A model generated the notes under the pieces. It worked only from the letters and a program-made list of their open reading frames with translations. It was not told where the DNA came from and did not search any database. Made by a program: the position numbers and the translations under genes. This document shows positions 10,064 through 50,242 of a stretch of DNA of 54,061 bases, piece by piece (position 1 is the first letter of the stretch; each line of letters opens with the position of its first letter). Origin of the DNA: a virus (lineage: Duplodnaviria > Caudoviricetes); IMG/VR virus record IMGVR_UViG_3300043602_000277, positions 1 to 54,061 of that record; one strand, 5' to 3'.

Positions 10064-11191
10064 ATGTTTACTAATTTTGCCGAAGCCCTGGCAGCGCTAG
10101 GGCCAAATGCCGGCGCGCGCATCATCAACGCCGCGCGCCCCACTTCCGACTATCTTCTCAACACCTTCCTGCCTGAGCGCCTCATGACCGATTACTCGGT
10201 CAACGCCGCCAACATGCTCGTCCGCACGACGATGGCCGGCATGGTCTCGATGGACAGCCCTTACCCGCCAGGCGGATTGGTCGAGCTGCAAACCTTCTTT
10301 GAACAGTCTCTCAAGCTCGGGATCAGCAACCGCATGATCGAGGCGCAGATCCGCCAGCTCCAGCAGTTGCTCATGGGGTTGCAACTCGCCGGTTCGCTGA
10401 CCAATGACTTCCTCCAGCGCGAGGCCTTCAACTTCTACCAAAAAACGGTCGTGCAGGCCATCCTAGACCGCGCCGAGTGGATGCGGGCGCAGGCGATGAT
10501 CTATGGCGCCATCAACTGGACATTCAACCAGAAGCCGGTCTCAGTCAGCTACGGCATCCCTGCCGGCAACTTCCTGACCACACGCACCGATGCCAACAAC
10601 GATTCCTACTCCGACACCGGCAGTAAATTTTGGGAAGATGTCGCCAACGCTCAGGGCATCCTGCGCTACAACCTGCGCGGCGCCGTTATGAACACCGCCA
10701 CCTATCTCAAAATTCTGAGCCAACCGGCCAACAACATCATCGTCCTGGCGCAGAGCAACAACAGCGTCACGGTCACGCGCACGACTTCACGCAGCGGCAA
10801 CACCGTGCAAGACAACGATGCTCGCTACACCATGCAGTTTGTGCTCTACGACCGTGAGGCCGAGGTGATGGACACCACGCCACCGAACCTGGGCAAGACC
10901 GAGATCAAAAAGTTTGTGCCAGATGGCAAGATCATCTACATCGGCGCCAACACCGCCAGTGGCTATGTGGTCGGCGAAGGCTCAACACGCAACCCACGCG
11001 CCGATATGGAGATCGGCTATCACCACATCGCCCCGACCGTTGAAGGCGGCGGCGCACCTGGCCGCTGGGGCCGCATGTACGTGCCGGAAGGCTATCCGAT
11101 GCAACTGATCGCCGAGGGCGCCAGCAACGAGCTGCCCGTCATCCTGGCGCCGGAGAAGATCTGCATCGCTACCACCGAGATGCTGCCGTAG
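10064..11191 (+). CDS. Major capsid protein (lambda gpE-like)
   Basis: 375 aa; LNTFLP, AILDRAEWMRAQAMIYG, VSYGIP and C-terminal LPVI motifs; position. Confidence 0.85.
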   Translation: MFTNFAEALAALGPNAGARIINAARPTSDYLLNTFLPERLMTDYSVNAANMLVRTTMAGMVSMDSPYPPGGLVELQTFFEQSLKLGISNRMIEAQIRQLQQLLMGLQLAGSLTNDFLQREAFNFYQKTVVQAILDRAEWMRAQAMIYGAINWTFNQKPVSVSYGIPAGNFLTTRTDANNDSYSDTGSKFWEDVANAQGILRYNLRGAVMNTATYLKILSQPANNIIVLAQSNNSVTVTRTTSRSGNTVQDNDARYTMQFVLYDREAEVMDTTPPNLGKTEIKKFVPDGKIIYIGANTASGYVVGEGSTRNPRADMEIGYHHIAPTVEGGGAPGRWGRMYVPEGYPMQLIAEGASNELPVILAPEKICIATTEMLP

Positions 11192-11250
11192 TTCACCGAC
11201 TTTTACCGACTTTTACCGACTTTTACCGACTTTTACCGACTTTTACCGAT
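11191..11250 (+). repeat. 10-bp tandem repeat TTTTACCGAC x6 (4 perfect, 2 imperfect)
   Basis: Visible directly between the MCP stop and the next RBS. Confidence 0.97.
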
Positions 11251-11262
11251 AAGGAGCGATCT

Positions 11263-12369: not shown

Positions 12370-12899
12370 TGGGAGAGGCGCTCTGGGCCGACCTCGACGC
12401 CTGGCAGGCAGAGATCCTGAGCCCGCTCATGGACGATCTGCAATTTCCAACGCTGCCGGTCAAGATGGTCGCCTGCACGCTCGTTCGCAACTATGTCGAG
12501 TGGGACAACCCTGCGGTCTGGACATTTCCGGCCATCATTGTCTCCAGCTCGACCCTGCGCCGTCCGGCCACAGAAACCATGTTCGGCGATGGCATCGCTC
12601 ACTACCGCAAGCACATTCCTTATCGCTGGTTCGCTGTGGTGGAGGGCGATTCCTTCACCTCAGAGCGCGATGCCAAAGTGCTGGAAAAGCGGCTGGAGAC
12701 ATTGGCTCGCCGGCTGGTGGCTGGCGGCTGGGGCGCCGGATCTGCTTTCCCGCTGCCAGCCGATGGCAGCGGCGAACGTCTGTCGACCATCAGGGTCGGC
12801 GACAGCGCCATCGCCCGCTATCCGCGCGGCACCGAAGCCGAGGACGATCCCTGGTGGGGAGTGGCGTCATTGGATATCGAGCTCGTCACTACGGTTTAG
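12363..12899 (+). CDS. Tail terminator/completion protein (probable)
   Basis: FPAIIV motif, beta-rich C-terminus; upstream of the tail tube gene. Confidence 0.55.
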   Translation: MVMGEALWADLDAWQAEILSPLMDDLQFPTLPVKMVACTLVRNYVEWDNPAVWTFPAIIVSSSTLRRPATETMFGDGIAHYRKHIPYRWFAVVEGDSFTSERDAKVLEKRLETLARRLVAGGWGAGSAFPLPADGSGERLSTIRVGDSAIARYPRGTEAEDDPWWGVASLDIELVTTV

Positions 12900-13586
12900 G
12901 CTGGTACTGATTCAGTTGTGGGGGAGTGGTAAATGCCCGTTCGACCGTCCAGTTTCTGCGAAGTATGCGATTTCTCAAGAGATCATAGGAAAGACCTAAT
13001 TCTTGTGACCAGTCGGCTAGTATCTGGCTCTTTCCGTTGAAGGTGATGAGAACGTTGTCTGAGCGGTTTCTTTGTTGCTCGGCGCGTGTCGCCCAACGTA
13101 GATTGCCAGGCTCGTAATGGCCGTCGTTGTCAATGCGGTCAAGCGTGCGGTTTTCTTCACCGAAACCAGGAAGCGTACTGACATGGTTGTAAAACGACTG
13201 AACGTCGTAAATCCAGGGCTCGTAGACATGAATACCACGCCCGCCATACCTGTGATAATTTGCGGAAGATGGCTGGGTGCAGCGGCCCACCATGCTATGC
13301 CAGGTCGAGTGGATACGCGTATTCCAGAGGCCATGAACGCGCTTCTGCTCAGATGTCATTTCTTTATGCAGACAGCCGCAAGAGCGCGAGCGTCCCGTTC
13401 GCAAACTTGTTTGTCTCACGATTCGCTCTGTGCCACAGTCACAGCGGCACAGCGGCACAGCCAATAGCTACATTGGGAGGTGGTATGCGACCAGGAGAGA
13501 ACAAGCCAACGTCCGAAGCGCTGGTCTGTCAAATCGACAAAGTTGGGGCGGTGCGTTTTGGGTCTTGGGGTATACTTGGAGGGCAT
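12889..13586 (-). pseudogene. HNH homing endonuclease, frameshifted by an 8-bp duplication
   Basis: DLTDQRFGRWLVL...YWLCRC and CDCG...SCGC...TLDRIDNDGHYEPGNLRWAT lie in different frames; ACAGCGGC x2 at 13441-13456. Confidence 0.88.
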
Positions 13587-13687
13587 GGAAGAGTCTCCTT
13601 TCATGCCAAGCCCAGGGGTGTTACAAGCACCGCCTGGGTATCTGTTTGCAAGGACTTTATTATAGCTCAGATGAGCTATTTACACAA
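13571..13687 (-). promoter_or_regulatory. Structured leader of the HNH gene (promoter, two hairpins, antisense -10)
   Basis: Minus-strand TTGTGT-17-TATAAT; hairpin CCCAGG-CGGTG-CTTGTAA-CACC-CCTGGG; RBS hairpin GGCATG..AAAGGAG..CATGCC; plus-strand TATACT at 13571. Confidence 0.6.
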
Positions 13688-30572: not shown

Positions 30573-30681
30573 TGCTAAAATGGCAGGAATAACAGATTGA
30601 AGAGATACCAGGGCGACGCTCACTACGTCCCCTGGCATGGCAGCAGAAACAGGAGTTCTGATGCACCCCGATCATATCATA
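30573..30681 (+). promoter_or_regulatory. Structured leader upstream of the ParB/DUF262 operon
   Basis: TGCTAAAAT extended -10; hairpin CCAGGG-CGACG-CTCACTA-CGTC-CCCTGG; RBS hairpin CAGAA-ACAGGAG-TTCTG; antisense TGATATGAT at 30671-30679. Confidence 0.6.
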
Positions 30682-30795
30682 CCTGGGGGTCTAATGGCCC
30701 CCTTGAATTCCCAAATCGACAACATATCTGGAAATTTCGCGCGCAAACTATGCGCGCTTTTTATTTTCTCCTACAACAACGGTCATAGCTTATGA
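30661..30795 (+). CDS. 44-aa leader peptide coupled to the ParB-like gene
   Basis: AGGAG RBS; its stop overlaps the next ATG (ATGA); contains hairpin GCGCGCA-AACTA-TGCGCGC-TTTTT. Confidence 0.55.
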   Translation: MHPDHIIPGGLMAPLNSQIDNISGNFARKLCALFIFSYNNGHSL

Positions 30796-31694
30796 ATTTA
30801 CCGTTAGACCAAATTCGCAAGGACGGCGGTACGCAAGCACGCGCGCAACTTGATTGGGGCGCCATTGATGAATATGCGGCGTCAATGAAGGAGGGGGAAG
30901 AATTCCCACCCATCATTGTCTACTATGATGGCACCGACTACTGGCTCGCCGACGGCTTTCACCGCGTGAGCGCAGCGGAGAAGGCGGGCCTGACGGAGAT
31001 CGCCGCCGATGTGCGGCAGGGAACGCGTCGGGACGCCATTCTCCACAGCGTGGGAGCGAATGCCAACCATGGGGTACGTCGCACTAATCGTGATAAACGC
31101 CAGGCCGTCATGATGATTCTACGGGATGAGGAATGGGGCAAGCTGTTTGACGGTGATATTGCTCGTCTTTGCGGTGTAACAAGCAGAACGGTTGCGACAA
31201 TTCGCAATGAGATGATTAATGAAAATTTCATTAAGCCTTCGCCAGAACGCTTTGGACTTCGCAATGGCAAGGTTCAAGTAAGAAATGTCGCCAATCTTGG
31301 CCGCAAACCCTCGCCGCTGTTGGTTCCCGAAGCCCTGCCACCAACGTTATGGCCCGTACCTATGCTGACCGATCTCGTCGCCCCAGAGGTTTCGCAGCCT
31401 ACTTTACACGACACGGAATTCACCTACCGTATTGCGCCCGATGATCTCTGTCTTATCGAACGGTGTCCCAACCAAGATGTCGAATGCGCCCATTGGTATT
31501 GGTACATGCGCCGGGATACAGCGGAGGAGGCAGCGGAAGCCTTTTTGCGATTGGGCAAAAGCATGGGATTACCAATCCAAGATGATGTCGTACCGACCAC
31601 AGGGGATGAGTTGGTTTATGAGGATTATGACATGGTTGTCTATGACATAGGTGCCTATGACACGGACGACTATGACGTAGACGAAGATAACTAA
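30792..31694 (+). CDS. ParB/Srx N-terminal domain + HTH protein
   Basis: GTQAR...FPPIIV..DG..YWLADGFHRV.AA; AN..HG..RT..DKR; IARLCGVTSRTV. Confidence 0.88.
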   Translation: MNLPLDQIRKDGGTQARAQLDWGAIDEYAASMKEGEEFPPIIVYYDGTDYWLADGFHRVSAAEKAGLTEIAADVRQGTRRDAILHSVGANANHGVRRTNRDKRQAVMMILRDEEWGKLFDGDIARLCGVTSRTVATIRNEMINENFIKPSPERFGLRNGKVQVRNVANLGRKPSPLLVPEALPPTLWPVPMLTDLVAPEVSQPTLHDTEFTYRIAPDDLCLIERCPNQDVECAHWYWYMRRDTAEEAAEAFLRLGKSMGLPIQDDVVPTTGDELVYEDYDMVVYDIGAYDTDDYDVDEDN

Positions 31695-31722: not shown

Positions 31723-33003
31723 ATGCAAAGTAATATGCTAGGAGGTTTTGACTTACAGAAGGTAATTTTGACGGGCGATATAGCACTCGATTGCTTGACG
31801 CTGGTCGAACGGTACGAAAAGAAGCAATACAGAATCCCTGATTTTCAGCGCCAGCCGCTTTTATGGCCTGACGCGCAGAGACAATCGTTTATCAGTCGAT
31901 TGCGAATCGGCCCCGCTCCAATTGGGACGATTGTACTCTTTGCCTCAGAAGATGATGCAGAACGCCATACCTATTTACTGGACGGATTGCAGCGTATTAG
32001 CACTATGTGGGAATTTTATCACAAGCCCGAGCGTTATGGCATAAGCGACAAGGATATTGCCCACCAGTTCTTACATAACGCAGAATTTCCGGTACAGCGG
32101 CGCACCTACCCGAACCAACGGGAGGCCTATGCAGACTTTCTCCGCTTGCAAGCCAATCTTCATCTCACGGCCTATGAAGAGAATTTAGGGACGCGTTCAT
32201 TACTTCCGCAGTGGTCATGGTTTAGTGGGATAGAAGATGATTTGCATAAGCGCGTGGCGCAAGTAATTGCGGGTTATGGAGTGAGGGAAAAAGATGATCG
32301 GGAGAATGCACACAACTACTTCCGCCACAATTTAGGAATGTTTTTGCGCTATGCAACCGCAAATCTAACATTGGAACCATGGCAGGTAACAGGCAAAATA
32401 AAAGCAAAAGCTGTCGAGACCAGGTTAGCGGAACTGCTTAAATCAGAATCCATGAAATTTAGTTCCGCCACAGAATCTTTAAAAGGGCTTTATCGCCGCC
32501 TCGATCTAGATTTTGCCGTGATTTTTGAAGCGTGGAAGGAGGCAAAGAAAGCAAAGGGGCTTAACGATGCGCGGCACATGGAAATTACTGTAATTCGTTT
32601 TTTACATGAATGCGGTATCTATGCACATCTCAACCGAGTCGGCCCCTATCGCTTCAAAAGTTTTGCACTGCAACTACTGAGCATCACCGAGGGACGCGGC
32701 CAGGTTCCATATAAGAAAGAAGGATCAGCAGAACGTGTCACACTTGGTTTGGGGAAGCTAGGACGTTTGTCGGACATGGCCCGTCATACCGCTGTTGAAG
32801 AGGACATACGCAATCCTGATGACAAGAGCGATAAGAGTAGTGGCAATTATCCAATCGGTCGCGGTCAAGATCGCGGTCATTTGCTTCCAAAGAGTATGTA
32901 CGGCAATGGCCCAACCGAACCGGAGCCAGCCTCATTGAATCGGTCAAAGGGAAATCGGATAACAGAGGAAGAATCATCCATAGATAATTTAGAGCCGGGG
33001 TAG
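31723..33003 (+). CDS. DUF262 (GmrSD-like) protein with C-terminal HNH-like motif
   Basis: IPDFQR...W, LLDGLQR; C-terminal DRGHLLPKS...LNRSKGN; lower GC. Confidence 0.75.
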   Translation: MQSNMLGGFDLQKVILTGDIALDCLTLVERYEKKQYRIPDFQRQPLLWPDAQRQSFISRLRIGPAPIGTIVLFASEDDAERHTYLLDGLQRISTMWEFYHKPERYGISDKDIAHQFLHNAEFPVQRRTYPNQREAYADFLRLQANLHLTAYEENLGTRSLLPQWSWFSGIEDDLHKRVAQVIAGYGVREKDDRENAHNYFRHNLGMFLRYATANLTLEPWQVTGKIKAKAVETRLAELLKSESMKFSSATESLKGLYRRLDLDFAVIFEAWKEAKKAKGLNDARHMEITVIRFLHECGIYAHLNRVGPYRFKSFALQLLSITEGRGQVPYKKEGSAERVTLGLGKLGRLSDMARHTAVEEDIRNPDDKSDKSSGNYPIGRGQDRGHLLPKSMYGNGPTEPEPASLNRSKGNRITEEESSIDNLEPG

Positions 33004-33171: not shown

Positions 33172-33675
33172 CTAACGCGCTAGGCGCCGGCTACGCGCCT
33201 CTCTATAGTCCGCTACAGACAACGGCCACCGCTGCCAGTAGCGCAGCCCATCCGCCGGCTGGTCGTAATCGAACAAGTTGAGTCGCCACGCCCGCCGGGC
33301 GCGATCATAGAGCCACAGGCCCGGGCCTCTACCATCCTCCTGCGCCTGGCGGCTGAAGATCATCTCCCGTAGCACGACCGACTCCGTTGACGTGATGCCC
33401 CAGCTCCGATGCCCAGCGCGGCCCCATGGCGCGGGAATGAGCAGGCGCCAGGTCACAGCGTCGATGTTGGACCAGGCGCCGTCATCATCGCGCTCGTAGG
33501 CAAGTTGGGTCAGCCGTTGGACGGCCTCGCTGAAGAGCTCGACGATGGCAGCGTCGGCGTTGCGCCGGCTGAGCGCTTCAGCCACTCGTTGGATCACGGT
33601 ATGCCGTTCCGGGGCGGCTGTGCTGATCGCTGCCTTGCGCTCAAGTTTGGCAAAGATGCCATTAGCGTTTGCCAT
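33172..33675 (-). CDS. Hypothetical protein (early left operon)
   Basis: ATG 33675 overlapping the upstream gene; Trp-rich. Confidence 0.7.
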   Translation of the reverse strand: MANANGIFAKLERKAAISTAAPERHTVIQRVAEALSRRNADAAIVELFSEAVQRLTQLAYERDDDGAWSNIDAVTWRLLIPAPWGRAGHRSWGITSTESVVLREMIFSRQAQEDGRGPGLWLYDRARRAWRLNLFDYDQPADGLRYWQRWPLSVADYREARSRRLAR

Positions 33676-34066
33676 AGCGCCGGAACCTCTCTTTTTGCTC
33701 GCGCTTGAGATAAGCCCATGCCAGCAGTGTGTGGGCGAAAAGGGCGCCGTCGGCTGAGACGAAAACATGCAGGGCGTACGCGCATAGCCACGCCATGGTG
33801 AAGCCGGCCAGCGCCAACAAGAGCGCCGGCACGCTGAGGAACGGAACGCCAAAGGCGAGGATGCCGATCAGCAGCACGACAACACCGGTGGCCGCGGCCA
33901 GCGGGGCGGTCGCCAGCATGAAGCCGTGAGCCCGGTCGCTGTGGGAGCTGTGGGGCATAGGTTCGGTGATCGGGGCGGGTGGCAATGCCATTGGCGGCAG
34001 GATCTCGACGCGGGGCGGGGCAGGGTCGGGGGCGACGAATCTTATGCTATTCTTCTGTTCAGGCAC
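33662..34066 (-). CDS. Membrane protein (3 hydrophobic segments)
   Basis: Hydrophobic stretches; GTG start inside an RBS-occluding hairpin. Confidence 0.75.
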   Translation of the reverse strand: MPEQKNSIRFVAPDPAPPRVEILPPMALPPAPITEPMPHSSHSDRAHGFMLATAPLAAATGVVVLLIGILAFGVPFLSVPALLLALAGFTMAWLCAYALHVFVSADGALFAHTLLAWAYLKREQKERFRRYGKR

Positions 34067-34140
34067 TAGGTACAGTCCTATCTAGTGATTAGCCGGCGGC
34101 TGCTTCTGGCGAGGTCAGCCGCCGGCGACTTTATTAACTT

Positions 34141-36095: not shown

Positions 36096-36284
36096 TTATA
36101 GCCCCTGTGCTTCGAGGTAGGTTCCCATGTTGGGCAGCTTGGTGCCGGCGGCCTGTGCGGCCTTGCGGTCGGCGGCGTACGCCTTGAGGGCCGCGTCATA
36201 TTTGGCCTGGCGCTCGCGTGCCGGCGCATTGCGGCGCCGTGATGCGATTTGCTTCTGGGTCTTGACTGACATAGAATTTGTCAT
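36096..36284 (-). CDS. Small basic protein, first gene of the left operon
   Basis: AGAAAGG RBS, ATG 36284. Confidence 0.65.
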   Translation of the reverse strand: MTNSMSVKTQKQIASRRRNAPARERQAKYDAALKAYAADRKAAQAAGTKLPNMGTYLEAQGL

Positions 36285-36358
36285 TGTTGAAACCTTTCTT
36301 GGAAGAGACAGGATTGAGACCGTGAGGCGGGCCGTTACGAGCGGCTGCGCCTCTTTTC
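36249..36358 (+). ncRNA. Putative ~75-nt antisense RNA with its promoter, covering the leader of the left operon
   Basis: TTGCTT-17-TAGAAT (36249-36277); transcript ends at hairpin GAGGCG..GCCGTTACGAGCGGC..CGCCTC-TTTT. Confidence 0.5.
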
Positions 36359-36393
36359 TATTGGCTTGCGCCCTTGCGCTTGCCTGTGAATCC

Positions 36394-36485
36394 AGTTTAT
36401 CACACTTTAATTCAATAGTCAAGAAATAAAGTTGAGTTTAATGACAATCTTCGTGTTGACTTCTTTACTTGTAGTGTGATATGCT
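36394..36485. promoter_or_regulatory. Divergent sigma70 promoter pair (genetic switch)
   Basis: Minus TTGACT-17-TAAACT, plus TTGACT-18-TATGCT, both TG-extended; AGTGTGATA occurs in both as an inverted repeat. Confidence 0.7.
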
Positions 36486-36505: not shown

Positions 36506-36775
36506 ATGGGGAAACTTAGACTTGATGAGCGCCGGCTAAAGGTGCTCATGGCAATGAACGGGATCGACACACTGCCGCAGCTCGCATCGGCGGCAAATAT
36601 GCACTACAACTCTGTATACAAAATGGTGAATACGGGGCGGTTTTCGATTGACTCAATCGAGGCGCTCGCCAATGTACTTGGCTGCAACCCCATCGATCTC
36701 GTCACGACGGAAGGGTATCCTGACCCAAAATCGGTACCCCTGGTCATCCGTGGACAGGAACTGGCAACGGCGTAG
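36506..36775 (+). CDS. Cro/CI-type HTH regulator
   Basis: LPQLASAANMHYNSVYKMVN...SIEALANVLGCNPIDLV; AAGGAG RBS. Confidence 0.85.
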   Translation: MGKLRLDERRLKVLMAMNGIDTLPQLASAANMHYNSVYKMVNTGRFSIDSIEALANVLGCNPIDLVTTEGYPDPKSVPLVIRGQELATA

Positions 36776-37016: not shown

Positions 37017-37067
37017 AAAAAGAGCCACTGTGACTAATCTGTAGTTAGTCACAGTGGCTCTTTTTTT
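37017..37067. terminator. Bidirectional terminator, perfect 21-bp inverted repeat
   Basis: AAAAAGAGCCACTGTGACTAA-tctgtag-TTAGTCACAGTGGCTCTTTTT. Confidence 0.85.
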
Positions 37068-37076: not shown

Positions 37077-38018
37077 TCAACCACCGACACGCCGGCGCAC
37101 TTCTTGATATTCGCGGCGGATGCCTTCCGGCAGCCAGTGGGCATAGAAGCGGCGCGTGAACTCTTCACTGGCATGGCCCATTGTGTCGCTGACGGCGGAT
37201 AGTTGCATTCCATTGTTGAGAAAGAGCATGGCATAACCGTGGCGGAAACGGTGCGGATTCTGGTAGGGCAATCCTGCTTCATGGCAGCGCCGGTGCAGCA
37301 TCTGGCGCACGCCGTTTCCGCTGAGCGCAGCCCTGGCGCCGCCGATGCCATTGTTGGAGACAAAAAGCGGATTGCCGGGAATGTTTTGGCCGTCGTGCGT
37401 TAAGGGCCGTTTCATCAGGTAGGCGCGGATCATGGGGCCTAGATCGGCGCCACAGGGGACAAGCCTGCCTTCGCCGCCTTTGCCGGTTTGCACCGTCACC
37501 TGCTGGCGAATGACGTCAACATCCGGCTGTTTGAGATCGGTCAGTTCGGAAATCCGCAATCCACACCAAAAGAGCAGATAGATGATGCAGCGATCGCGAC
37601 ATTCAACCCAGGTGTGTTCGCCTATCGAAGCCGTGAGCCGCTGGTACTGGGCCAAGCTCACATAGGGTCGCACTCCATTTGGTAAGCCGGGCGCTTCCAG
37701 ATCAGCCATTGGCGACGCCGGCAGACACTTCACCCGCTTGACGAGATAGTTATACCAGACCCGCAGACTCCGATAACGACCCGCCACCGTGTATGGACTA
37801 TAGCCGGCCTCCTGTTCATGGACGATGAACGCCTCAATCGTTTCGGGTTCGCCCATATCCAACCGGCTTTGCATTGGATCGGCTAACCAGTCGAGGTAGC
37901 GGTTGAGGTGTTGCTCATAGGAGATCAGTGTGTTCGGTGAGCGATTGAGCGCACGCTTCGTTTGCAGGAACCGTGCAACCCAGCTCGACCATAGTTCGAC
38001 ATCTGCGCGTGTTGCCAT
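37077..38018 (-). CDS. int: Tyrosine integrase
   Basis: GLRISE (R), GKGG (K), HRFRH, MGH, FY catalytic residues. Confidence 0.95.
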   Translation of the reverse strand: MATRADVELWSSWVARFLQTKRALNRSPNTLISYEQHLNRYLDWLADPMQSRLDMGEPETIEAFIVHEQEAGYSPYTVAGRYRSLRVWYNYLVKRVKCLPASPMADLEAPGLPNGVRPYVSLAQYQRLTASIGEHTWVECRDRCIIYLLFWCGLRISELTDLKQPDVDVIRQQVTVQTGKGGEGRLVPCGADLGPMIRAYLMKRPLTHDGQNIPGNPLFVSNNGIGGARAALSGNGVRQMLHRRCHEAGLPYQNPHRFRHGYAMLFLNNGMQLSAVSDTMGHASEEFTRRFYAHWLPEGIRREYQEVRRRVGG

Positions 38019-38247
38019 ATCACGATGCCTTTCTGAATACAGAGAGGGATTCGCCCAGCGGGATCAGGGCTTATCGCGCGAGACGTCCAAAGTTCTATCT
38101 GGGTGTGCTAACGCGAAACTTCCCGCTGCCGGCGCATATTTGCGCCAGGGCGGGAAGCTACGCATCGGTCATTCGTTTGTTGCCGGGGCTCTCCAGCAGC
38201 CGGCAATCAATCATGAGCTCCCATAGGGTAGCAAGGAATTTATCGCT

Positions 38248-38658
38248 ATGTCTATAGCTGAACCAAATACCGCAACACAAATCGTCGGCAGAAACGGCGA
38301 CCACTCATCACCGCCACCATCAAAACCTAGGCAAAAGCCGCGAGGCCGCTACAAACCAAGACTCGCCACCAATATCAAGGTGACGATGGAGGAAGTCGTG
38401 GCAAAGTCTACTTCAGCGCGCCGGTGGATGGGGTTAATTTTGGATTGGATCGAGGAGGAACGCAGGGTCACCAAAGCCGATATTGAGGCTCTGGTTGATG
38501 TTGCGCCGATTACGGCGATTGCCAACGGCATGTACCATGACCGGCTGATCCGCTTGGGCGAGCTGGATCACCACATGGCGCGGCTGGCGCTGGAAGTGAC
38601 GGCCATCGAGACGGAGCTAAGGGATGCGTTGGAGCATTCGCGGGCGGCAGCGCCATGA
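38248..38658 (+). CDS. Hypothetical protein, first gene of the right early operon
   Basis: AAGGA RBS within a CATAG/CTATG hairpin. Confidence 0.7.
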   Translation: MSIAEPNTATQIVGRNGDHSSPPPSKPRQKPRGRYKPRLATNIKVTMEEVVAKSTSARRWMGLILDWIEEERRVTKADIEALVDVAPITAIANGMYHDRLIRLGELDHHMARLALEVTAIETELRDALEHSRAAAP

Positions 38659-39488
38659 GCAGCGAAACGACCGACGCCATATTTGACCAGATTGACGGCG
38701 CTGATTTGAGCGCAACGGCCTATCGCACAGGGATACGCCTATGGCGGTTGGCCGCGGCCAATGGGGGCGTGGTTCATTTGCCGCGGACGCAGATGATCGC
38801 GCTTTGCGGCACGGAGAGCGACGGTACTATGAAAAACCACTTATGTCAGATTGCGAAGGCCGGCATTATTGAATACGGCGTGACGGGCGACGTGGTATTT
38901 ATCAGACTTTTGTTGTGGATTTATCACGCTGAGCGTGACGCTCATCACGCTGAGCGTGACAACGATGATGGTAATCGTCACGCTGAGCGTGACGCTCATC
39001 ACGCTGAGCGTGACGATGCGGCTTCTACCTCACACGTGCGCGCACGCGCGGTAGGTAGGTTAGGTAGGTCTTTTACTACTACAGATAAAAGAAAAAAACC
39101 TACCTACCCACCTACCTCCCAAACGCCGGCGCTTACTGGCGAACAGCAACTCGCGTTTGAACTTCTGGTCGATAGCGAGGTGGGCGTGATCCACCGCATA
39201 GCGGATGAACTTGCGCGCAAATTGCCGCCACAGGACATTTACCGGGCGGTTGACAAGTGGCTGCCGGAACATCAGGCGGCGAAAGTTGGGCCTGGCGCGC
39301 TTAAGCATCGCCTGGAAACGCTCAAGCCATCCAATGCCCGCATGGTCAGCCTATCCGCCGGCTTCCGTGACAGCGAACTCTTCCACCGCCACCGGTTGCC
39401 AGATGAGATGATCGCCGACCCGGAGCGCAAGCAGTACAACATCGATGACGGAGCAGCCAGGGAACCGAGAAAGAAGTACAGCGTATGA
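38655..39488 (+). CDS. Replication initiator (probable)
   Basis: N-terminal winged-helix-like region; internal DNA repeats and an AT-rich tract, as in lambda O-type genes. Confidence 0.7.
   Translation: MSSETTDAIFDQIDGADLSATAYRTGIRLWRLAAANGGVVHLPRTQMIALCGTESDGTMKNHLCQIAKAGIIEYGVTGDVVFIRLLLWIYHAERDAHHAERDNDDGNRHAERDAHHAERDDAASTSHVRARAVGRLGRSFTTTDKRKKPTYPPTSQTPALTGEQQLAFELLVDSEVGVIHRIADELARKLPPQDIYRAVDKWLPEHQAAKVGPGALKHRLETLKPSNARMVSLSAGFRDSELFHRHRLPDEMIADPERKQYNIDDGAAREPRKKYSV
38924..39108. repeat. Putative origin: four palindromic iterons + AT-rich tract
   Basis: TCACGCTGAGCGTGA at 38924, 38945, 38978, 38999; then GGTAGGTAGGTT/AACCTACCTACC inverted repeat flanking an A/T-rich stretch. Confidence 0.8.
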
Positions 39489-39811: not shown

Positions 39812-40164
39812 AAGCCAAATTGCATCCGCGGCTGAAACTGGCCCGCATCCGCCATCCGTGGTCATCGTATGCTGACGACCAGAACGGCGCCTTCCGGCTC
39901 ATGGGGCCGTGTAAGCGCCCCCTCCTGATGATTGCGAGCAACGGCGGTGGCTGGGATCATATCAGCGTCAGCATTGCCGACAACGAAGAGATCCCAACAT
40001 GGGATGAGATGTGCTTCGTCAAGGATTTATTCTTTGAGGCAGAAGAACCGGCGTTTCAGTACCACCCGCCCCAAAGCCGCTACGTTAACATATTCAAGGG
40101 CTGTCTGCATCTATGGCGACCACAAGGCGTAGCGATACCAATGCCGGATCTGGGGCTTGTATGA
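39808..40164 (+). CDS. Conserved phage protein
   Basis: GGWDHISVS...PTWDEMCFVKDLFF...QYHPP...YVN...CLHLWRP, a widespread phage family. Confidence 0.8.
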   Translation: MKAKLHPRLKLARIRHPWSSYADDQNGAFRLMGPCKRPLLMIASNGGGWDHISVSIADNEEIPTWDEMCFVKDLFFEAEEPAFQYHPPQSRYVNIFKGCLHLWRPQGVAIPMPDLGLV

Positions 40165-40937: not shown

Positions 40938-41471
40938 ATGCCACGTCGCCGACACAAAAGTACCTTGAAGCAGCGCATGACCCCATGCGAATGTTGTGGA
41001 TATCCAATATCACAGCGTCACCACTTATTCGAGATCGCTCATTACGGAGAAAGCGATTTTACCAGACAGCTATGTGCAAACTGTCATGAGCTATACCATC
41101 TAATCGAAGCGCTTGACTCCACACCAGAAGATCGGGCGGACAAGGTAACACGTTCTTCAGCTTTGATTGGCCGGATCGTGTCGGCTTGGGGCAAGGATGA
41201 CCCGCGATTCAAGTACCTTTGCGAACTATATTATTTAGCACAAGAGCATCGTGATGCGGTAATGCTTGCCGTAGGAATTCCAAATATGGCCCTTGATATG
41301 ACTCGCAATTGGCTTGACAATATGACGCCTGAAGAATATGACGAGCTTAAGATTGAGATTGAGCACGAGCGGGCGCTCAAGTGCGAACGCACGTATTTCC
41401 GCTGTGGCGTGACCTGCGTGAGGAAATACTTCAAGAGATCGACACGCTCTTGGATATTGTCGCGTGGATGA
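40938..41471 (+). CDS. HNH-like protein
   Basis: CECCG...HH...LCANCH. Confidence 0.7.
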   Translation: MPRRRHKSTLKQRMTPCECCGYPISQRHHLFEIAHYGESDFTRQLCANCHELYHLIEALDSTPEDRADKVTRSSALIGRIVSAWGKDDPRFKYLCELYYLAQEHRDAVMLAVGIPNMALDMTRNWLDNMTPEEYDELKIEIEHERALKCERTYFRCGVTCVRKYFKRSTRSWILSRG

Positions 41472-43681: not shown

Positions 43682-43786
43682 TATAATACAGGAGTAAACC
43701 ACATAAAAAGAGACAGGATGTTATCAGCATCCCGTCTCCCATTCAGTACCTGTGTAGAGGCACAGATACCATGTCAGATCATACCA
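43682..43786 (+). promoter_or_regulatory. Structured leader of the HNH-like gene
   Basis: TATAAT; hairpin GAGAC-AGGATG-TTATCAG-CATCC-CGTCTC; RBS hairpin CTGTG-TAGAGG-CACAG; antisense TGGTATGAT at 43778-43786. Confidence 0.6.
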
Positions 43787-44481
43787 CGCGTCCATTCCAA
43801 CCCGAACTTCCCTTCGACGAAATTCCCTACGGCTACTGCCAATGCGGCTGCGGGCAAAAGACCCATATTGAAACCCATACCCATCCAGAACGCGGCCAGT
43901 TCGCTGGTGAGCCACGACGCTTTCTGCGTGGGCATCAAGGCCGCAAACCTACACCCAAAGCCGATGAACTCAAGATTTGCTCGCGATGCAAGCAGGGCAA
44001 ACCTTTATCTGATTACTCCCAACGTCGGAGCGGCAAAAGAGCCGGTCAATACTATTCGCACTGCCGCGCCTGTGCAGTTGAGGCGACGATGGCAAGCCGC
44101 TCAAAAGACGCTTCGTATCAAGTGCGTCAAAGGGAACTTCAGCGAAAATTTCGCGAGCGTCATCAGGAGCGACTTACTATCAAGTCATCTGAGCGATATG
44201 CTAAGAATCCTGAAGCTAGAAAAGCTGGCGCACGAAAAACCAGAGAGAAAAATCCGTTGCGCGAAAAGGCGCATATTGCCGTTCGACGCGCCATAGCACG
44301 GGGCGATCTTCCTCCTGCAACAGCAATGGTATGTGAACGATGCCAAGAAGCGCAGGCTGCTCACTGGCATCACGATATGGGATACGCCGAGGAATATCGT
44401 CTACACGTAATCGCTCTATGCAAGTCGTGTCATGGAAAGGCGCATTGGCTAGATATTGGCGAATCTAATCGGACTTCATGA
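43771..44481 (+). CDS. Zn-finger/HNH-like endonuclease
   Basis: CQCGCG; CSRC...CRAC; CERC...HH..Y...LCKSCH. Confidence 0.75.
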   Translation: MSDHTTRPFQPELPFDEIPYGYCQCGCGQKTHIETHTHPERGQFAGEPRRFLRGHQGRKPTPKADELKICSRCKQGKPLSDYSQRRSGKRAGQYYSHCRACAVEATMASRSKDASYQVRQRELQRKFRERHQERLTIKSSERYAKNPEARKAGARKTREKNPLREKAHIAVRRAIARGDLPPATAMVCERCQEAQAAHWHHDMGYAEEYRLHVIALCKSCHGKAHWLDIGESNRTS

Positions 44482-47220: not shown

Positions 47221-47520
47221 ATGTCAACAGACAATTGGTTCGTCATCATCATGTTTATCGGCGTGTACATCTGTTGCCTGCTCCTGCTCGACGGCGCCCA
47301 CCGTGCCCACATCGCCGCGCTGAAGGGGGCGCATTACGAGCAGGTGGCATCCTTGCGCTCCTACATCCGCACGTTGAGCCGCGAACGGCTGTGGCTGGAG
47401 GCGGAGCTGGCACGCGTCAAGGACAAGGCGAAGCAGGTGCAGGCTGAGCCGGAACATATCGAATGGATGCCGTTGCAGTGGTTACCGCCGTCCGAGGAAT
47501 ATGATGGCGACCGCAATTGA
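47221..47520 (+). CDS. TM + coiled-coil protein, paralog of 2408-2731
   Basis: Direct sequence similarity. Confidence 0.8.
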   Translation: MSTDNWFVIIMFIGVYICCLLLLDGAHRAHIAALKGAHYEQVASLRSYIRTLSRERLWLEAELARVKDKAKQVQAEPEHIEWMPLQWLPPSEEYDGDRN

Positions 47521-47932
47521 GCTGTTGCCGGAATTTATCGGCATCTTCGTGCCGCTGGAGATCATGCGCCTGGAAGAGGTGGGCGGGCCGAAACCAACGG
47601 AGTTGGCCGCAGCGTCTGCCTACTGGGCGGATCGCCTGGACGCCGGCGAGCTTGACGAGCTGCTCTTCCCGGTCAAGTGCAAGACGGCGCGCAGCGCCAG
47701 CATGTTGGTGTCAATCATCGCCTGCCTGGCGTTTGAGACGGGCGGCGTGCGGGTCTTTGGACACCACTTTGTTGCCTATGAACCAGAGCCCGCACATAAA
47801 CAGCCCTGGCACAAGCCCACCGTGGTTTATGTGCCGCTACAGGGAACGGGCTTTGAGGTCGGTTCGGACATTGACGGACAGGACGGCACGTGGCCGCCGC
47901 CACTAATGGACAAAGAAAAAACCGGCTGCTAA
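47501..47932 (+). CDS. Paralog of 2724-3008 with a C-terminal extension
   Basis: Direct sequence similarity. Confidence 0.8.
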   Translation: MMATAIELLPEFIGIFVPLEIMRLEEVGGPKPTELAAASAYWADRLDAGELDELLFPVKCKTARSASMLVSIIACLAFETGGVRVFGHHFVAYEPEPAHKQPWHKPTVVYVPLQGTGFEVGSDIDGQDGTWPPPLMDKEKTGC

Positions 47933-48279
47933 GCCGGCTCTAATTCCATCTGTAATTGTTCGAGCTTGACAGGCGTTTTCTGTGCCTGCTTGCCATAGGT
48001 GATGATGCGCTGCCTTTGCTCTTCACGCTGCACCTGTTCCCGTTGCCGCTCTTCCACCGCCTCAGCCTGTTCGACAAGGCCGGCGGGCAGCTCGTAGGGA
48101 TTGTGCTCAATTACGTCTAGCTCGCCGCGGCCGATTCTGCGAATCATGACTTGCCAGCTCGGTATGCTACGCCTGGCGGGGCCACGGGTGGGACGCGAAC
48201 GGGTCTGCACGGCTAGTTCTTGCAGCCGCTCCAGTTCGGCGGCGGTCAGGTCGATGCGGTGATGTTCTCGGTGTTCCAT
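47929..48279 (-). CDS. Paralog of 3023-3400 (RHH-like)
   Basis: LPAGL.E.A.AVEERQREQ...KQAQKTP...LEPA shared; GGAG RBS before ATG 48279. Confidence 0.75.
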   Translation of the reverse strand: MEHREHHRIDLTAAELERLQELAVQTRSRPTRGPARRSIPSWQVMIRRIGRGELDVIEHNPYELPAGLVEQAEAVEERQREQVQREEQRQRIITYGKQAQKTPVKLEQLQMELEPA

Positions 48280-48522
48280 GTGTTTCTCCAATCTGAACAG
48301 GGCGGGCAAGTTGTGATGCTGCTGTGGCCCTATAGCTACGTATATAGCACGAATGTTAACGGTAATCAAGATGACGGGGATACAATTTTGACAGGTGCTG
48401 TCAATTTTTCCGCCGCCTGCCCCTCTCCGCCGCCACCCAGAGGGTTCCCGCCGCCAAAGGCTGACAGCGGGCGCGAAGTAGCAGGACTGCTAGCGGCGGG
48501 CGACATATGACAGGTTGAGCCA

Positions 48523-49005
48523 ATGGCTTTATCGGCCAAACAAAGCGCATTCGTAGAGGAATATTTGCGATGCTGGAATGCGACAGACGCTTATCAGACC
48601 GTTTATCCAAAGTCGAGTCGGGACGCGGCCAGAGCACACGCAGCGCGATTGGTAGCAAATGGTAGCATTGCCGCAGAGATTCAGCGCCGTGTAGATGAAC
48701 GCGCCATGTCCGCCAATGAAGTGCTTGATCGTCTTGCGGAGCAGGCCAGGGCCGGCTATAGCGCCTATCTCACAGCGGACGGTGCAGTAGATTTTGCTCG
48801 GCTGGTCGCCGATGGCAAGGGACACTTGGTCAAGGGCATCAAAGATACAGCGCAAGGACGTAATATCGAGTTTCACGACGCCCAGGCCGCGCTCGTGCAA
48901 ATCGGCAAGCACCACAAGCTCTTTACAGATAACGTGCAACAATCCGGTGAGGTAGTGGTAAAAGTCCAATATGGCGATGACGGAACTGACAGTACGCCTG
49001 AATAA
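48523..49005 (+). CDS. terS: Terminase small subunit B
   Basis: LSAKQSAFVEEYL..WNAT.AY; central part nearly identical to TerS A. Confidence 0.92.
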   Translation: MALSAKQSAFVEEYLRCWNATDAYQTVYPKSSRDAARAHAARLVANGSIAAEIQRRVDERAMSANEVLDRLAEQARAGYSAYLTADGAVDFARLVADGKGHLVKGIKDTAQGRNIEFHDAQAALVQIGKHHKLFTDNVQQSGEVVVKVQYGDDGTDSTPE

Positions 49006-50242
49006 GCCACACCCCAAACAGCGCCAGTTTCTGCGCTGCCCGGCCAAGCGCATCGTGGTGCGGGCCGGCCGACGCGGCGGCAAAACGGTCGGCATGGCCA
49101 TCAAGGCCGTGGAGAGTTTTCTGCGAGGACACCGCGTGCTCTACGCCGCGCCCACGGCTGACCAGATCAACACCTTTTGGCGCCATGTGCGCGATGCTCT
49201 TCAGCCTTGCATCGACGCCGGCCTCTATTACAAGAACGAAACCGAGAAGATCGTCGAATTGCGTGGCACGGAGCAGCGCATCAAAGCAAAGACCGCTTGG
49301 AACAGCGACACTCTTCGTGGAGACTATGCCGATCTGCTCATCCTCGATGAGTGGCAGTTGATGAATGAAGATGCCTGGGGCGTCGTCGGTGCGCCGATGC
49401 TTCTGGACAATGACGGCGATGCGGTCTTTATCTATACGCCGCCATCGGCGCGTACGGCTGGCACCAGCAAGGCGCATGACAAAAAACATGCGGCCAAGCT
49501 CTTTGCGGCAGCGGCTGCCGATACGACGGGGCGTTGGGCGGCCTTTACCTTTAGCAGCCACGACAACCCCTATTTGAGCCAAGATGCTTTGGGGGAAATT
49601 GCCGGCGACATGAGCAATCTGGCCTATCGCCAGGAAATCATGGCTGAGGACATTGACGAGGTTCCGGGGGCATTGTGGACGCGGGCGAACTTAGAAAAGC
49701 ATCGTATCAAGTCAGCGCCTTCAATGTACCGCATCGTCGTGGCGGTAGACCCGGAAGCCACGGCCACGGCCACCAGCGCCGAGACGGGCATCATCGTGGC
49801 AGGCATCGACGAAAACGAGATCGGCTATCTCTTGGAGGATTGTACGCTGCGGGGATCGCCTGGCGAGTGGGGTATGGCTGCCGTGCGCGCCTTTGATCGC
49901 TGGGACGGCGATCACATTGTCGCCGAAACCAATAACGGCGGTGACATGGTGAAATTTGTGGTCGAGGCGGCTGCCAAGGAGTTATATCGGCAGGAGGAGC
50001 GCAAGAGCGACCGTATACCTTACAAGAAACTGCACGCCAGCCGGGGAAAACATACGCGCGCCGAGCCGGTATCAACGCTCTACGAGAATGGCCGTATTAA
50101 GCATGTCGGTGCTTACGCCGAGCTGGAAGATCAGTTATGTACGTGGTTGCCGGGTGATACGAGTCCCGATCGCTTAGATGCGGCTGTGTGGGCCTTTACC
50201 GAGTTGATGCTTTCAGAGAAGAAAAAAGCCGGAACATGGTAA
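48971..50242 (+). CDS. terL: Terminase large subunit B (different lineage from A)
   Basis: Walker A AGRRGGKT, Walker B LILDE, VVAVDP, SPDRLDA. Confidence 0.95.
   Translation: MAMTELTVRLNKPHPKQRQFLRCPAKRIVVRAGRRGGKTVGMAIKAVESFLRGHRVLYAAPTADQINTFWRHVRDALQPCIDAGLYYKNETEKIVELRGTEQRIKAKTAWNSDTLRGDYADLLILDEWQLMNEDAWGVVGAPMLLDNDGDAVFIYTPPSARTAGTSKAHDKKHAAKLFAAAAADTTGRWAAFTFSSHDNPYLSQDALGEIAGDMSNLAYRQEIMAEDIDEVPGALWTRANLEKHRIKSAPSMYRIVVAVDPEATATATSAETGIIVAGIDENEIGYLLEDCTLRGSPGEWGMAAVRAFDRWDGDHIVAETNNGGDMVKFVVEAAAKELYRQEERKSDRIPYKKLHASRGKHTRAEPVSTLYENGRIKHVGAYAELEDQLCTWLPGDTSPDRLDAAVWAFTELMLSEKKKAGTW

Follow-up and report, generated by a model that had tools for sequence, protein, structure and literature searches.

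A portable two-hairpin leader with a predicted antisense promoter precedes HNH endonuclease genes of temperate phages

Introduction

Genes on either strand of a single temperate phage genome begin behind what looks like one and the same leader, which raises the question of whether this arrangement is a genuine recurring unit and how it might act on the genes that follow. The window, i.e. the whole stretch of DNA analysed here (54,061 nucleotides), represents this circularly assembled 54-kb genome. An original prediction had described in it a leader with two hairpins and an opposing promoter at four core sites (hereafter modules A, B, C, and D), and had interpreted it as a portable antisense device silencing the downstream gene. 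The phage and its relatives are known from metagenome assemblies alone. Searches of isolate phages with megablast and blastn returned no match to an 18-kb stretch of the genome or to leaders A and D, and a search with the portal protein returned relatives of at most 38.5% identity, from many hosts. Use of sigma-70-type promoters is assumed from the consensus-like sense -10.

Results

Architecture of the four core modules

The four-site leader cassette was confirmed, with every sequence feature that the original prediction lists for the core sites found at its predicted position. All four sites share a common order, running from a sense sigma-70 -10 box (mostly extended) through an A-rich spacer to hairpin 1 (about 10 bp with one bulge and a 7-nt loop), then to hairpin 2, which carries the Shine-Dalgarno sequence or the start codon, and finally to an antisense -10-like hexamer overlapping codons 3–5 of the downstream gene. 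Compared with shuffled sequences, folding of the leaders gave z scores of -2.71 (A), -2.38 (B), -2.62 (C), and -3.70 (D). The predicted face-to-face promoters of each module lie ~85–95 bp apart, with 16–26 nt between the sense -10 and hairpin 1 (40 in C) and 24–39 nt between hairpin 1 and the start codon.

Module A, on the minus strand, precedes an HNH endonuclease gene (12889–13586; phrog_374, E 6.8e-56) that an 8-bp tandem duplication has broken into two frames; the relative L037 has the gene uninterrupted (235 aa). Its sense -10 is a perfect consensus hexamer (13659–13664), followed by hairpin 1 (13611–13638), identified by folding and by searches with covariance models R1–R3, and by a hairpin 2 predicted from folding (13582–13607), which encloses both the Shine-Dalgarno sequence and the start codon (13586–13584). 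The antisense -10 hexamer, on the plus strand (13571–13576), matches the consensus at 5 of 6 positions at offset +10, counted from the A of the start codon, and an identical hexamer is retained in the foreign leader L113.

Module B lies on the plus strand and starts with an extended -10 (TGn plus hexamer, 30573–30581) that was read from the sequence and aligns with a TGnTATAAT block common to 15 leaders, 12 of which have the TG extension. Hairpin 1 (30608–30635), supported by folding and by model matches (E 3.5e-16, 1.4e-14, and 1.1e-12 for R1, R2, and R3), consists of 6 bp, a bulged C, 4 bp, and the 7-nt loop. In the folded hairpin 2 (30640–30664), the loop holds the Shine-Dalgarno sequence and the 3' arm holds the start codon (30661–30663), the latter being characteristic of an A/B subtype. 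On the opposite strand, two overlapping -10 hexamers (30671–30681), each matching at 5 of 6 positions and the first with a TG extension at offset +10, would produce an antisense RNA of ~67 nt (30592–30666, minus strand) with two hairpins and a T-rich 3' tail. The open reading frame behind this leader has only 44 codons (30661–30795), belongs to no known family, and shows no clear membrane segment on reading; its first codons are similar to the N-terminal tag of D-type leaders. It contains, just before the next gene, an intrinsic-terminator-like hairpin with a T run (30739–30767, plus strand, called by a terminator scan), a downstream terminator seen in module B alone among the four. The stop codon of the frame overlaps the start of a ParB-like gene (30792–31694), which is followed by a GmrSD_N/DUF262-like gene (31723–33003), both on the plus strand. 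A and B read as clear homologues: they have an ungapped 40-nt match in common, a gapped pattern derived from this match occurs twice in the window versus never in 100 shuffles, and 4 of the 10 stem pairs of hairpin 1 differ between them, every one altered on both sides.

Module C, on the minus strand, lies at the head of the leftward early operon, the sense promoter of which was called by a promoter scan and combines a -35 box, a 17-nt spacer, and a -10 with TG (36394–36422). Its hairpin 1 (36324–36353) was identified by folding and by a match to R3 (36314–36365, 22.0 bits, E 6.1e-4), from whose training set C was excluded. Hairpin 2 is weak (z 0.1), and the predicted opposing plus-strand promoter (36249–36277) comprises a -35-like box, a 17-nt spacer, and a -10 matching at 5 of 6 positions at offset +7. 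The target is the first gene of the operon and encodes a 62-aa basic protein of no known family (36096–36284).

Module D, on the plus strand, precedes an HNH-type endonuclease gene (43771–44481; phrog_2340, E 1.6e-20). It starts with a perfect consensus -10 hexamer (43682–43687), and its hairpin 1 (43710–43738) was called terminator-like on the minus strand (13 pairs plus a T run), an A·C mismatch on the sense strand being a G·U pair on the antisense strand. Folding places the Shine-Dalgarno sequence in the loop of hairpin 2 (43746–43769), and the predicted antisense promoter is an extended -10 (43778–43786, minus strand; 5 of 6 positions plus TG, offset +7). The predicted antisense RNA, ~67 nt long (43698–43773, minus strand), would contain a 5' hairpin whose loop carries an anti-Shine-Dalgarno sequence, followed by a 12-bp terminator hairpin with a U run, and none of 200 shuffles folded as well. 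D shares the layout but belongs to the family only through positional orthology with foreign leaders that match the models, as R1–R3 gave no match to D itself or to leaders L339 and L369. Hairpin-1 stems evolve faster than their flanks: a comparison of D with L339, a close relative, shows differences at 12 of the 29 bases of hairpin 1, the ten in the stem being compensated, and none in the 14 nt upstream of the hairpin, the 9 nt downstream of it, or the first 29 coding nt.

Two looser versions that had been proposed alongside the core sites were dropped as family members, as neither matched a covariance model. The one at 34045–34134 has a strong hairpin (z -4.33) and a T-rich tail on the plus strand yet matches no model, and the one at 38177–38256 folds no better than chance (z -0.66). 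An unbiased scan of the window found an upstream -10 at 9 of 105 sites combining a hairpin and a T-rich stretch, versus ~4.6 expected, and A, B, C, and D were among the nine. Two other minus-strand hairpins with an upstream -10 (39886–39919 and 33223–33257) lie within coding sequence with no nearby start codon, and were taken as chance occurrences.

Copies of the module in other phages

Approximately 25 more copies were found in viral metagenome contigs, preceding unrelated HNH endonuclease bodies, which agrees with the portability that had been proposed for the module. The covariance-model check proposed at the outset was run as well: R3, trained on 23 sequences excluding C, recovers C. Pattern-based scans were far less productive. 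The first gapped pattern scan of IMG/VR returned at least 118 stretches, and among the matches listed only L037 and L113 were leaders. A flank-only scan of the same database returned 17 stretches, two of them real, and flank-only scans of metagenome and genome contigs returned 9 + 9 stretches, none of the 18 with a hairpin, and these matches are due to chance. Scanning with the hairpin-2 pattern found only the contig of L235 itself. Among 80 loci around relatives of the ParB-like protein, no leader was detected, the single match (E 1.7) not being upstream, and 80 loci around A-type HNH relatives yielded L188 only (E 0.59 with R1, and 3.4e-6 with R2, for which L188 was then in the training set).

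No Rfam family matched the window at gathering score, and at E values up to 10 nothing overlapped the leader hairpins of the four modules in the window or the L113 leader, which suggests a family that has no Rfam model. A search for tRNAs and tmRNAs found none. A full-text literature search likewise returned no paper linking phage HNH or homing endonuclease genes to a cis-antisense leader.

Covariation, strand asymmetry, and loop of hairpin 1

The compensatory stems anticipated for hairpin 1 were recovered in an alignment of 23 copies, with 96.0% of positions paired and 8 of the 10 pairs varying on both sides, in alignments fitted to the model and from model matches that favour paired sequences. 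Cells changed on both sides numbered 59, versus 16.4 ± 3.8 in shuffles, with the caveat that the copies share descent, so that such counts are not independent events. The covariation score of 0.667 exceeded that of all 500 shuffles (0.161 ± 0.026) and of slid controls (at most 0.097), and the covariation check thus came out strongly positive.

This pairing is not symmetrical between the two strands. On the sense strand, the cells of the 23 copies comprise 218 Watson-Crick pairs, 7 A·C, 0 G·U, 2 C·C, and 3 gaps. Every sense-strand A·C corresponds to a G·U on the antisense strand, and D and L339 contribute two further A·C. Because there are seven A·C and no G·U on the sense strand, full pairing is attained on the antisense strand only. 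The antisense hairpin was also predicted to be more stable than the sense hairpin in 14 of 16 leaders.

The loop of hairpin 1 has the consensus C-U-N-N-N-A-A, closed by a G-C pair in 16 of 16 leaders. The proposal that this shared loop is a binding site for a common trans-acting factor is disfavoured by the conservation of positions 1, 2, 6, and 7 only, the middle three varying. The pattern would better fit a U-turn recognition loop with private specificity in each copy. By the consensus, one of the two strands has a Y-U-N-R start, the motif described for antisense recognition loops (PMC4485353). A resemblance to the anticodon loop of ANN-reading tRNAs, and with it a mimic similar to the thrS operator, was dropped because the three middle bases vary freely. 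Reading the conserved 3' flank of hairpin 1 as a sigma-54 promoter or a -35 box was rejected on spacing by inspection of the sequence, and the flank is better explained as an arm pairing with the start codon. Hairpin 2, predicted to enclose the Shine-Dalgarno sequence, was found to do so in 15 of 16 leaders, the weak one being C.

Antisense promoter and predicted RNA

The antisense -10 was found at all four core sites as predicted, at offset +7 (C, D) or +10 (A, B). Among the other gene starts of the window, only 1 of 54 has such a hexamer within -3 to +30, and the base rate of the hexamer in the window is 0.00098 per nt. Of the 16 leaders retrieved without imposing an antisense -10, 12 have TAnnnT (at least 4 of 6 matches) at +10 and 3 have it at +7, and the other 103 offsets tested gave 4 matches in total. 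T1, A2, and T6 are retained at the fixed offset while the encoded residues differ, and many copies have a TG extension; a second copy, in another complete phage, has a perfect extended -10 over codons 2–4. The hexamer is absent from one of the 16 leaders (L414) and, by reading of the sequence, from L188, a copy in the model alignment outside these 16. A simple promoter scan that requires a -35 called no antisense promoter.

The T-rich antisense flank of hairpin 1 was likewise found at the four sites, with 5–7 T per 10 nt. Across copies, the 10 nt after the antisense hairpin contain a mean of 5.2 T, versus 2.15 in the background and 1.6 on the sense side. In C, D, and several of the foreign copies, the tail includes a run of 4–5 T, and tails are often only moderately T-rich (3–8 T in 10, with 3 T in 2 of 23) with no U run. 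Among the hairpin 1 elements of the modules, a terminator scan called only that of D, and A, B, and other copies may terminate the antisense RNA poorly. The predicted antisense RNA would be about 61–75 nt long. By geometry, it would begin at the start codon and end beyond hairpin 1, and would be complementary to the ribosome-binding region. The predicted RNAs fold into two hairpins and a tail, with z scores of -5.27 (D), -4.35 (A), -3.62 (B), and -1.41 (C).

Discussion

The architecture of the leader, its conservation, its covariation and strand asymmetry, and the constant offset of the antisense -10 are properties of the sequences themselves. The conclusion that the module is portable and built as a cis-antisense unit is well supported by these sequence comparisons. 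We infer from them that an antisense RNA is made, where it would end, and that it would repress. Our main reading, to which we assign a probability of roughly 0.6, is that this portable unit encodes a cis-antisense RNA of the predicted size that silences the gene behind it. In such a module, the sense promoter, strong and mostly an extended -10, would produce an mRNA with hairpin 1 followed by hairpin 2 in its 5' UTR, while the antisense promoter, with its -10 inside codons 3–5, would start an RNA near the start codon that runs back through the ribosome-binding region and stops at the antisense form of hairpin 1 and its U-rich tail, near the sense start. This RNA would pair with the leader, probably beginning with loop–loop contact between the 7-nt U-turn-type loops, and pairing would block translation or destabilise the mRNA; interference from convergent transcription may contribute. 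Expression of the gene behind the leader, in most cases an HNH endonuclease gene, would stay low unless sense transcription outruns antisense transcription. The unit, which is portable and includes a few in-frame N-terminal codons, is found joined to gene bodies that are unrelated. For module B, the frame under control would be the 44-codon remnant, and its translation may govern whether transcription passes the internal terminator to reach the ParB-like and GmrSD-like genes.

A more far-reaching version of this reading, which we hold only tentatively, is that the modules are mutually orthogonal antisense locks, with a constant scaffold (the two opposed -10 boxes, the spacers, the loop frame C-U-N-N-N-A-A, and the ribosome-binding hairpin) and with stems and loop centres under pressure to diverge, so that each of several copies in a phage or a cell would be ruled by its own RNA alone. 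A lock with a 4–10-codon in-frame tag hiding the antisense promoter would then move between unrelated homing endonuclease genes, and could stay behind to regulate others, such as the early left operon or, by way of a translated remnant frame and an internal terminator, the ParB/GmrSD genes.

Other roles for the leader were weighed against the same data. Hairpin 1 could act in the mRNA alone, as a 5'-UTR stabiliser against 5'-end-dependent decay or as a protein site, with hairpin 2 throttling translation and with the antisense -10 and T-rich flank arising as by-products of AT-rich codons and an A-rich initial transcribed region. The position of the hairpins 16–26 nt after a strong sense -10 is consistent with this, as are the unrelated hairpins found ~3–4 nt after a -10-like box in A-type HNH homologues (L165, L120, L162, L152, and L158), the location of all model matches on the sense strand of the gene, and the RBS-sequestering hairpins established for T4-type homing endonuclease genes (PMC2988022). 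However, the seven A·C and absence of G·U on the sense strand are the opposite of what would be expected of a sense-only RNA helix, the antisense hexamer peaks at +7/+10 with T1, A2, and T6 conserved over variable residues and is found at a single one of the 54 other gene starts, and the spacer is A-rich rather than T-rich (5.2 versus 1.5 in 10 nt), all of which makes a purely sense-strand leader unlikely.

We also consider it improbable that the antisense promoter, as part of the mobile nuclease cassette, faces outward, driving a divergent neighbouring host-phage gene and offsetting the interruption of its operon, with the hairpin as a leader or attenuator of that mRNA instead of the end of a regulatory RNA, although such activity would be compatible with the antisense reading preferred here. 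In at least 10 of the 16 loci, the longest adjoining frame indeed runs divergently and begins within tens of nt; the distance from the sense -10 to the start codon of the neighbour beyond it is ~2–40 nt in A, L113, L344, L349, L354, and L353; and invading endonuclease genes can carry promoters that act on neighbours, as a T4 review notes (PMC2988022). Yet the antisense -10, hairpin, and tail are retained in B, D, L347, and L369, where the upstream neighbour is co-directional or unclear, the hairpin with a run of 4–5 T lies straight across the antisense path in C, D, L339, L344, L358, L369, L375, and L397, and the neighbours are unrelated genes. A role for the imperfect palindrome as DNA, in which it would form a cruciform or a hairpin in single strands or serve the mobile cassette as a site for recombination or for a nuclease, might be suggested by stem pairs that are strictly Watson-Crick without G·U and by the association with mobile nuclease genes. 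We regard it as very improbable: DNA-binding sites keep their sequence, whereas these stems vary freely, an A·C mismatch would cost a DNA hairpin stability on either strand, and the fixed 7-nt asymmetric loop, bulge, orientation, and spacing to promoter, Shine-Dalgarno sequence, and start codon point to RNA.

Read as cis-antisense units, the modules resemble several known systems and are identical to none of those compared. The sar/ant locus of the temperate phage P22 produces a short antisense RNA from inside the leader or early part of its target, complementary to the RBS, ending at an intrinsic terminator, and arising from facing promoters. The modules similarly combine facing promoters with a predicted antisense RNA over the ribosome-binding site. 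They have no sequence or Rfam match to sar, and they differ in placing the antisense -10 in the first target codons, where it travels as an in-frame tag, and in occurring four per genome with mostly HNH endonucleases, instead of an antirepressor, as targets. In IS10 RNA-OUT/RNA-IN, plasmid copy-control, and hok/sok-type systems, as predicted for the modules, the start region of a gene that could do harm is overlapped by a cis-antisense RNA of ~60–70 nt encoded by a mobile element, and loops and stems diverge fast, which gives private specificities. The resemblance extends to recognition loops of 6–7 nt with a Y-U-N-R start (loop rule from PMC4485353). No homology to these systems was found, and the modules differ as phage nuclease cassettes with two hairpins, in which the complement of the putative terminator hairpin is part of the mRNA leader.

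T4-type homing endonuclease genes are likewise locked at the level of translation by a hairpin of their own, which encloses the Shine-Dalgarno sequence in the way hairpin 2 does. Such RBS-sequestering hairpins are described for I-TevI, I-TevII, I-TevIII, segB, and mobE of Aeh1, the T4 lock being opened by a late promoter inside the hairpin, from which transcripts without the 5' arm arise (PMC2988022). The promoter scan and reading of the modules showed no promoter-like site between the arms of hairpin 2. The modules differ from the T4 type by their second, upstream hairpin and opposing promoter, and the hosts and nuclease families differ as well. In restriction-modification systems such as EcoRI, a nuclease gene contains internal reverse promoters that make antisense RNA. 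These RNAs are not comparable in position, size, or structure, and there is no portable leader. The 7-nt loop with its variable middle, the full pairing on the antisense strand only, a hairpin 2 with the Shine-Dalgarno sequence, and the presence of a downstream terminator in module B only set the modules apart from lambdoid nut sites (boxA/boxB) and HK022 put, where a promoter-proximal sense-strand hairpin with a conserved 5-nt boxB loop, or the two put stem-loops, acts on terminators further down. The targets, endonucleases of ~190–300 aa and a 62-aa basic protein, set them apart from type I toxin–antitoxin systems, whose antisense RNA is directed at a hydrophobic toxin peptide of less than 60 aa; the 44-aa product of module B has no family and, on reading, no clear membrane segment.

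The leader places a predicted regulatory promoter in the first codons of the gene that it would control. Proteins that are otherwise unrelated thereby carry a recognisable N-terminal tag (M-x-D-H-T-T and variants), a help in annotation. The 23-sequence alignment could seed an Rfam model for the family, and variable stems on a fixed scaffold could yield orthogonal antisense regulators for synthetic biology. If the antisense reading is true, free-standing HNH homing endonuclease genes of temperate phages would own a dedicated antisense-RNA control, next to a T4 paradigm built on promoter choice and RBS hairpins. Such control would account for the harmless presence of these genes downstream of promoters that look constitutive and, in either orientation, inside essential operons.

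Architecture of the leader modules

The four core leader modules of the window, A (13571-13687, -), B (30573-30681, +), C (36249-36422, -) and D (43682-43786, +), had been predicted to share one architecture, and reading each of them confirmed this. All four present, in order, a sigma-70 -10, an A-rich spacer, a bulged promoter-proximal stem-loop (hairpin 1), a second stem-loop around the Shine-Dalgarno (hairpin 2), the start codon and, on the opposite strand over the first codons, a -10-like hexamer (the antisense -10). The sense -10 matches the consensus perfectly in A and D, is TG-extended in B and is paired with a -35 in C. In hairpin 1, a bulge or small internal loop separates a lower stem of 5-6 bp from an upper stem of 4-5 bp, which is capped by a 7-nt loop. 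The four leaders are more stable than shuffled sequences (z -2.4 to -3.7). A and B align over 40 nt without gaps, with identical flanks and 4 of 10 stem pairs swapped on both sides, and a gapped pattern derived from the two matches two sites in the window, compared with none in 100 shuffles.

Two further features were seen near the sense promoter and hairpin 1. In the fold of module A, a 7-bp inverted repeat (~13660-13683, -) covers the spacer and -10 of the sense promoter and could be an operator. Immediately 5' of hairpin 1, a 9-nt A-rich motif is found in C (36354-36364, -) and in at least eight foreign leaders from viral metagenome contigs, including L113, L349, L354, L397, L400 and L401, with an identical 12-nt stretch in C and L397; it could be part of an antisense tail or a sense-strand site.

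Genomic context and downstream genes

The window spans the entire record (54,061 bp, G+C 57.8%) and carries the same 127 bp at both ends, which indicates a circular assembly. It is a temperate tailed phage with an integrase (37077-38018, -), a repressor-like gene (36506-36775, +) beside divergent promoters (36394-36485), and portal, terminase, major head and tail genes; no tRNA was detected in the window and no close isolate relative was found. The 54-kb circle includes two large-terminase genes (4038-5489 and 48971-50242) and diverged duplicate segments (2471-3965 vs 47284-48935, 76-85% identity), which means that the phage has two packaging modules or that the assembly is chimeric. On a relative's contig, DNA resembling 43.4-48.4 kb joins directly to DNA resembling 3.4-4.6 kb. 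Just past the integrase gene, a perfect 21-bp inverted repeat flanked by T runs on both sides (37017-37065) resembles a bidirectional terminator. A 10-bp unit repeated about six times in tandem (11182-11259) immediately follows the major head gene, and clustered direct and inverted repeats of ~16-37 nt (38924-39014, within ORF 38655-39488) could be iterons or an origin.

The genes downstream of the four modules are unrelated. Module A precedes an HNH endonuclease gene (phrog_374; 12889-13586, -) which an 8-bp tandem duplication at ~13440-13455 divides into two frames, and which is intact (235 aa) in the relative L037. Module D fronts an endonuclease of phrog_2340 without significant similarity to the A-type protein (E 0.32), and module C a 62-aa protein of no family. 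Module B is followed by a 44-codon ORF, then a ParB-like gene whose start overlaps the stop of that ORF, then a GmrSD_N-like gene. Inside the ORF, 25 nt before the ParB-like start, lies a strong terminator-like site of intrinsic type (30739-30767); translation of this remnant ORF across the terminator could set read-through into the ParB-like gene, a possible translation-dependent attenuation.

The proposed portability of the leader was upheld by reading translations, in which a D-type leader with an M-x-D-H-T-T start fronts five or more types of nuclease body. The proteins of D and of its close relative, the foreign locus L339, are 47% identical over their first ~99 residues and share no similarity beyond. 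Between these two loci, hairpin 1 differs at 12 of 29 bases, with all ten stem changes compensated, and hairpin 2 differs too, while the 14 nt preceding hairpin 1, the 9 nt following it and the 29 nt at the start of the coding sequence match exactly. Third-position G+C is lower in the HNH, ParB-like and GmrSD-like genes (0.45-0.57) than in core genes (0.64-0.78), as expected of imports. Across 21 loci with a zinc-finger-like N-terminal motif, extra N-terminal codons occur only in the two that bear the leader, which makes these codons look like part of the cassette. On reading, ORF 40938-41471 looks like another HNH-type gene, being low in third-position G+C (0.50) and Cys-rich at its N-terminus; it has neither a leader module nor a PHROG match.

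Relatives and family membership

Pattern scans of IMG/VR returned two real leaders among at least 118 stretches (two among 17 for a flank-only pattern). These are true relatives of A: L037, nearly identical to it and on a contig 70-90% identical to parts of the window, and L113, which is followed by an intact HNH gene. The flank pattern also matched 18 stretches in metagenome and genome contigs, none of which forms the hairpin. The original prediction had proposed a covariance-model scan as a check, and a model of A, B and L113 (R1) recovered only A and B in the window, the next-best matches being D on the minus strand (E 3.3) and C (E 7.3). Applied to 100 loci centred on D-type nuclease and ParB relatives, R1 identified L235 (E 1e-4) and L232 (E 3.7e-3), each of which immediately precedes a D-type nuclease homologue in the sense orientation. 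Alignment of the L232 leader with D extends over its full length (promoter, spacer and first codons), with a hairpin in the same place and of different sequence.

Another pattern, fixing only the sense -10 and first codons, matched 53 stretches, among which 11 loci (ten distinct sequences) have the full layout. The successor model R2 recognises hairpin 1 of L349, L358, L347, L354 and L344 (E 1e-7 to 2e-3) and of L341 (E 0.03), matches that of L353 weakly (E 1.5), and does not recognise those of D, L339 and L369. A protein-based search for HNH relatives, which placed no constraint on DNA, gave 80 loci; R2 matched 15 (12 of them new), all on the sense strand and immediately upstream of the gene. 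In a window scan with filters off, a model of 23 such hairpins from which C was left out (R3) detects C (22 bits, E 6e-4) and gives only a partial minus-strand match to D (E 0.92). By model, A, B and C are assigned to one family, to which D is assigned by positional orthology with L232/L375 and L339; the upper stem and loop of D are those of the model match L347. In the complete 66.8-kb phage that contains L341, a further, variant copy (L390; record G002, 5739-5763, -) stands in front of another nuclease gene. Found through its hairpin alone, it has a loop of 6 nt, lacks a sense -10 in the usual position and shows a perfect extended antisense -10 over codons 2-4.

Covariation and the antisense signals

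The compensatory stems first noted for hairpin 1 hold in a 23-sequence alignment, in which 8 of 10 pairs vary on both sides, 96.0% of cells are paired and no one-sided pair change occurs. Compensated cells number 59 vs 16.4 +/- 3.8 in shuffles, and the covariation score of 0.667 was reached by none of 500 shuffles (structures slid by 1-3 columns scored at most 0.097), although these numbers overstate independence because fitting to the model shaped the alignment and the copies share ancestry. The pair cells comprise 218 Watson-Crick, 7 A.C, 0 G.U and 2 C.C (register artefacts) pairs and 3 gaps. A sense-strand A.C is an antisense-strand G.U, and training on Watson-Crick pairs should, if anything, make a model more tolerant of G.U than of A.C; the presence of A.C without G.U on the sense strand thus points to the antisense RNA as the strand needing an intact helix. 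A.C pairs of this kind also occur in D and L339, and in 14 of 16 leaders the predicted stability is higher for the antisense hairpin. The loop reads C-U-N-N-N-A-A, positions 1, 2, 6 and 7 agreeing in 12, 13, 10 and 12 of 14 seven-nt loops, and is closed by G-C in 16 of 16.

An antisense -10 in the first codons, likewise predicted, was found in leaders chosen independently of it: A and B from the original prediction, L113 and L235 via hairpin 1, and 12 from the protein search. Hexamers were scored as TAnnnT with at least 4 of 6 bases of the -10 consensus, on the assumption of sigma-70-type promoters in the host. Counted from the start codon, they lie at offset +10 in 12 of these 16 leaders and at +7 in three, with only four matches at the other 103 offsets (-55 to +49). 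T1, A2 and T6 are constant while the encoded residues vary between copies, and 6 of the 12 leaders of that comparison carry a TG extension. In the window, 5-of-6 hexamers occur at a base rate of 0.00098 per nt and at 1 of 54 other gene starts.

The predicted T-rich antisense flank of hairpin 1 stands as an enrichment (mean 5.2 T per 10 nt, range 3-8, vs 2.15 in background and 1.6 in the corresponding sense-strand flank), but runs of 4-5 T are absent from A, B and others, being confined to C, D, L339, L344, L358, L369, L375 and L397; an intrinsic-terminator scan called D alone. The predicted antisense RNAs (61-75 nt) fold into two hairpins and a tail, with z of -5.27 (D), -4.35 (A), -3.62 (B) and -1.41 (C).

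A candidate cis-antisense RNA

These features are most simply explained by a short gene for a cis-antisense RNA that overlaps the leader, a reading to which we give a probability of roughly 0.6. This predicted RNA is suggested by the conserved, precisely placed -10, the helix ~40 nt on, unbroken on that strand alone, and the T-rich tail. If transcription starts ~7 nt downstream of the antisense -10, the RNA would begin at the start codon, and its loops would contact complementary mRNA loops; a Y-U-N-R rule for antisense recognition loops is given in PMC4485353. Hairpin 2 would add an intrinsic brake on translation, similar to that of T4-type homing endonuclease genes (PMC2988022).

A leader acting on the sense strand only is unlikely, and the A.C pairs speak against it. 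About equally improbable is an outward promoter serving a divergent neighbour, a reading favoured by the divergent orientation of the neighbour in at least 10 of 16 loci and compatible with the cis-antisense RNA.

In Rfam, the window has no match at gathering score and the leader unit no family, and our full-text literature search found no account of phage HNH genes with a leader of this kind. P22 sar, IS10 RNA-OUT and Sok are known antisense systems, and the unit described here is predicted to work in the same way.
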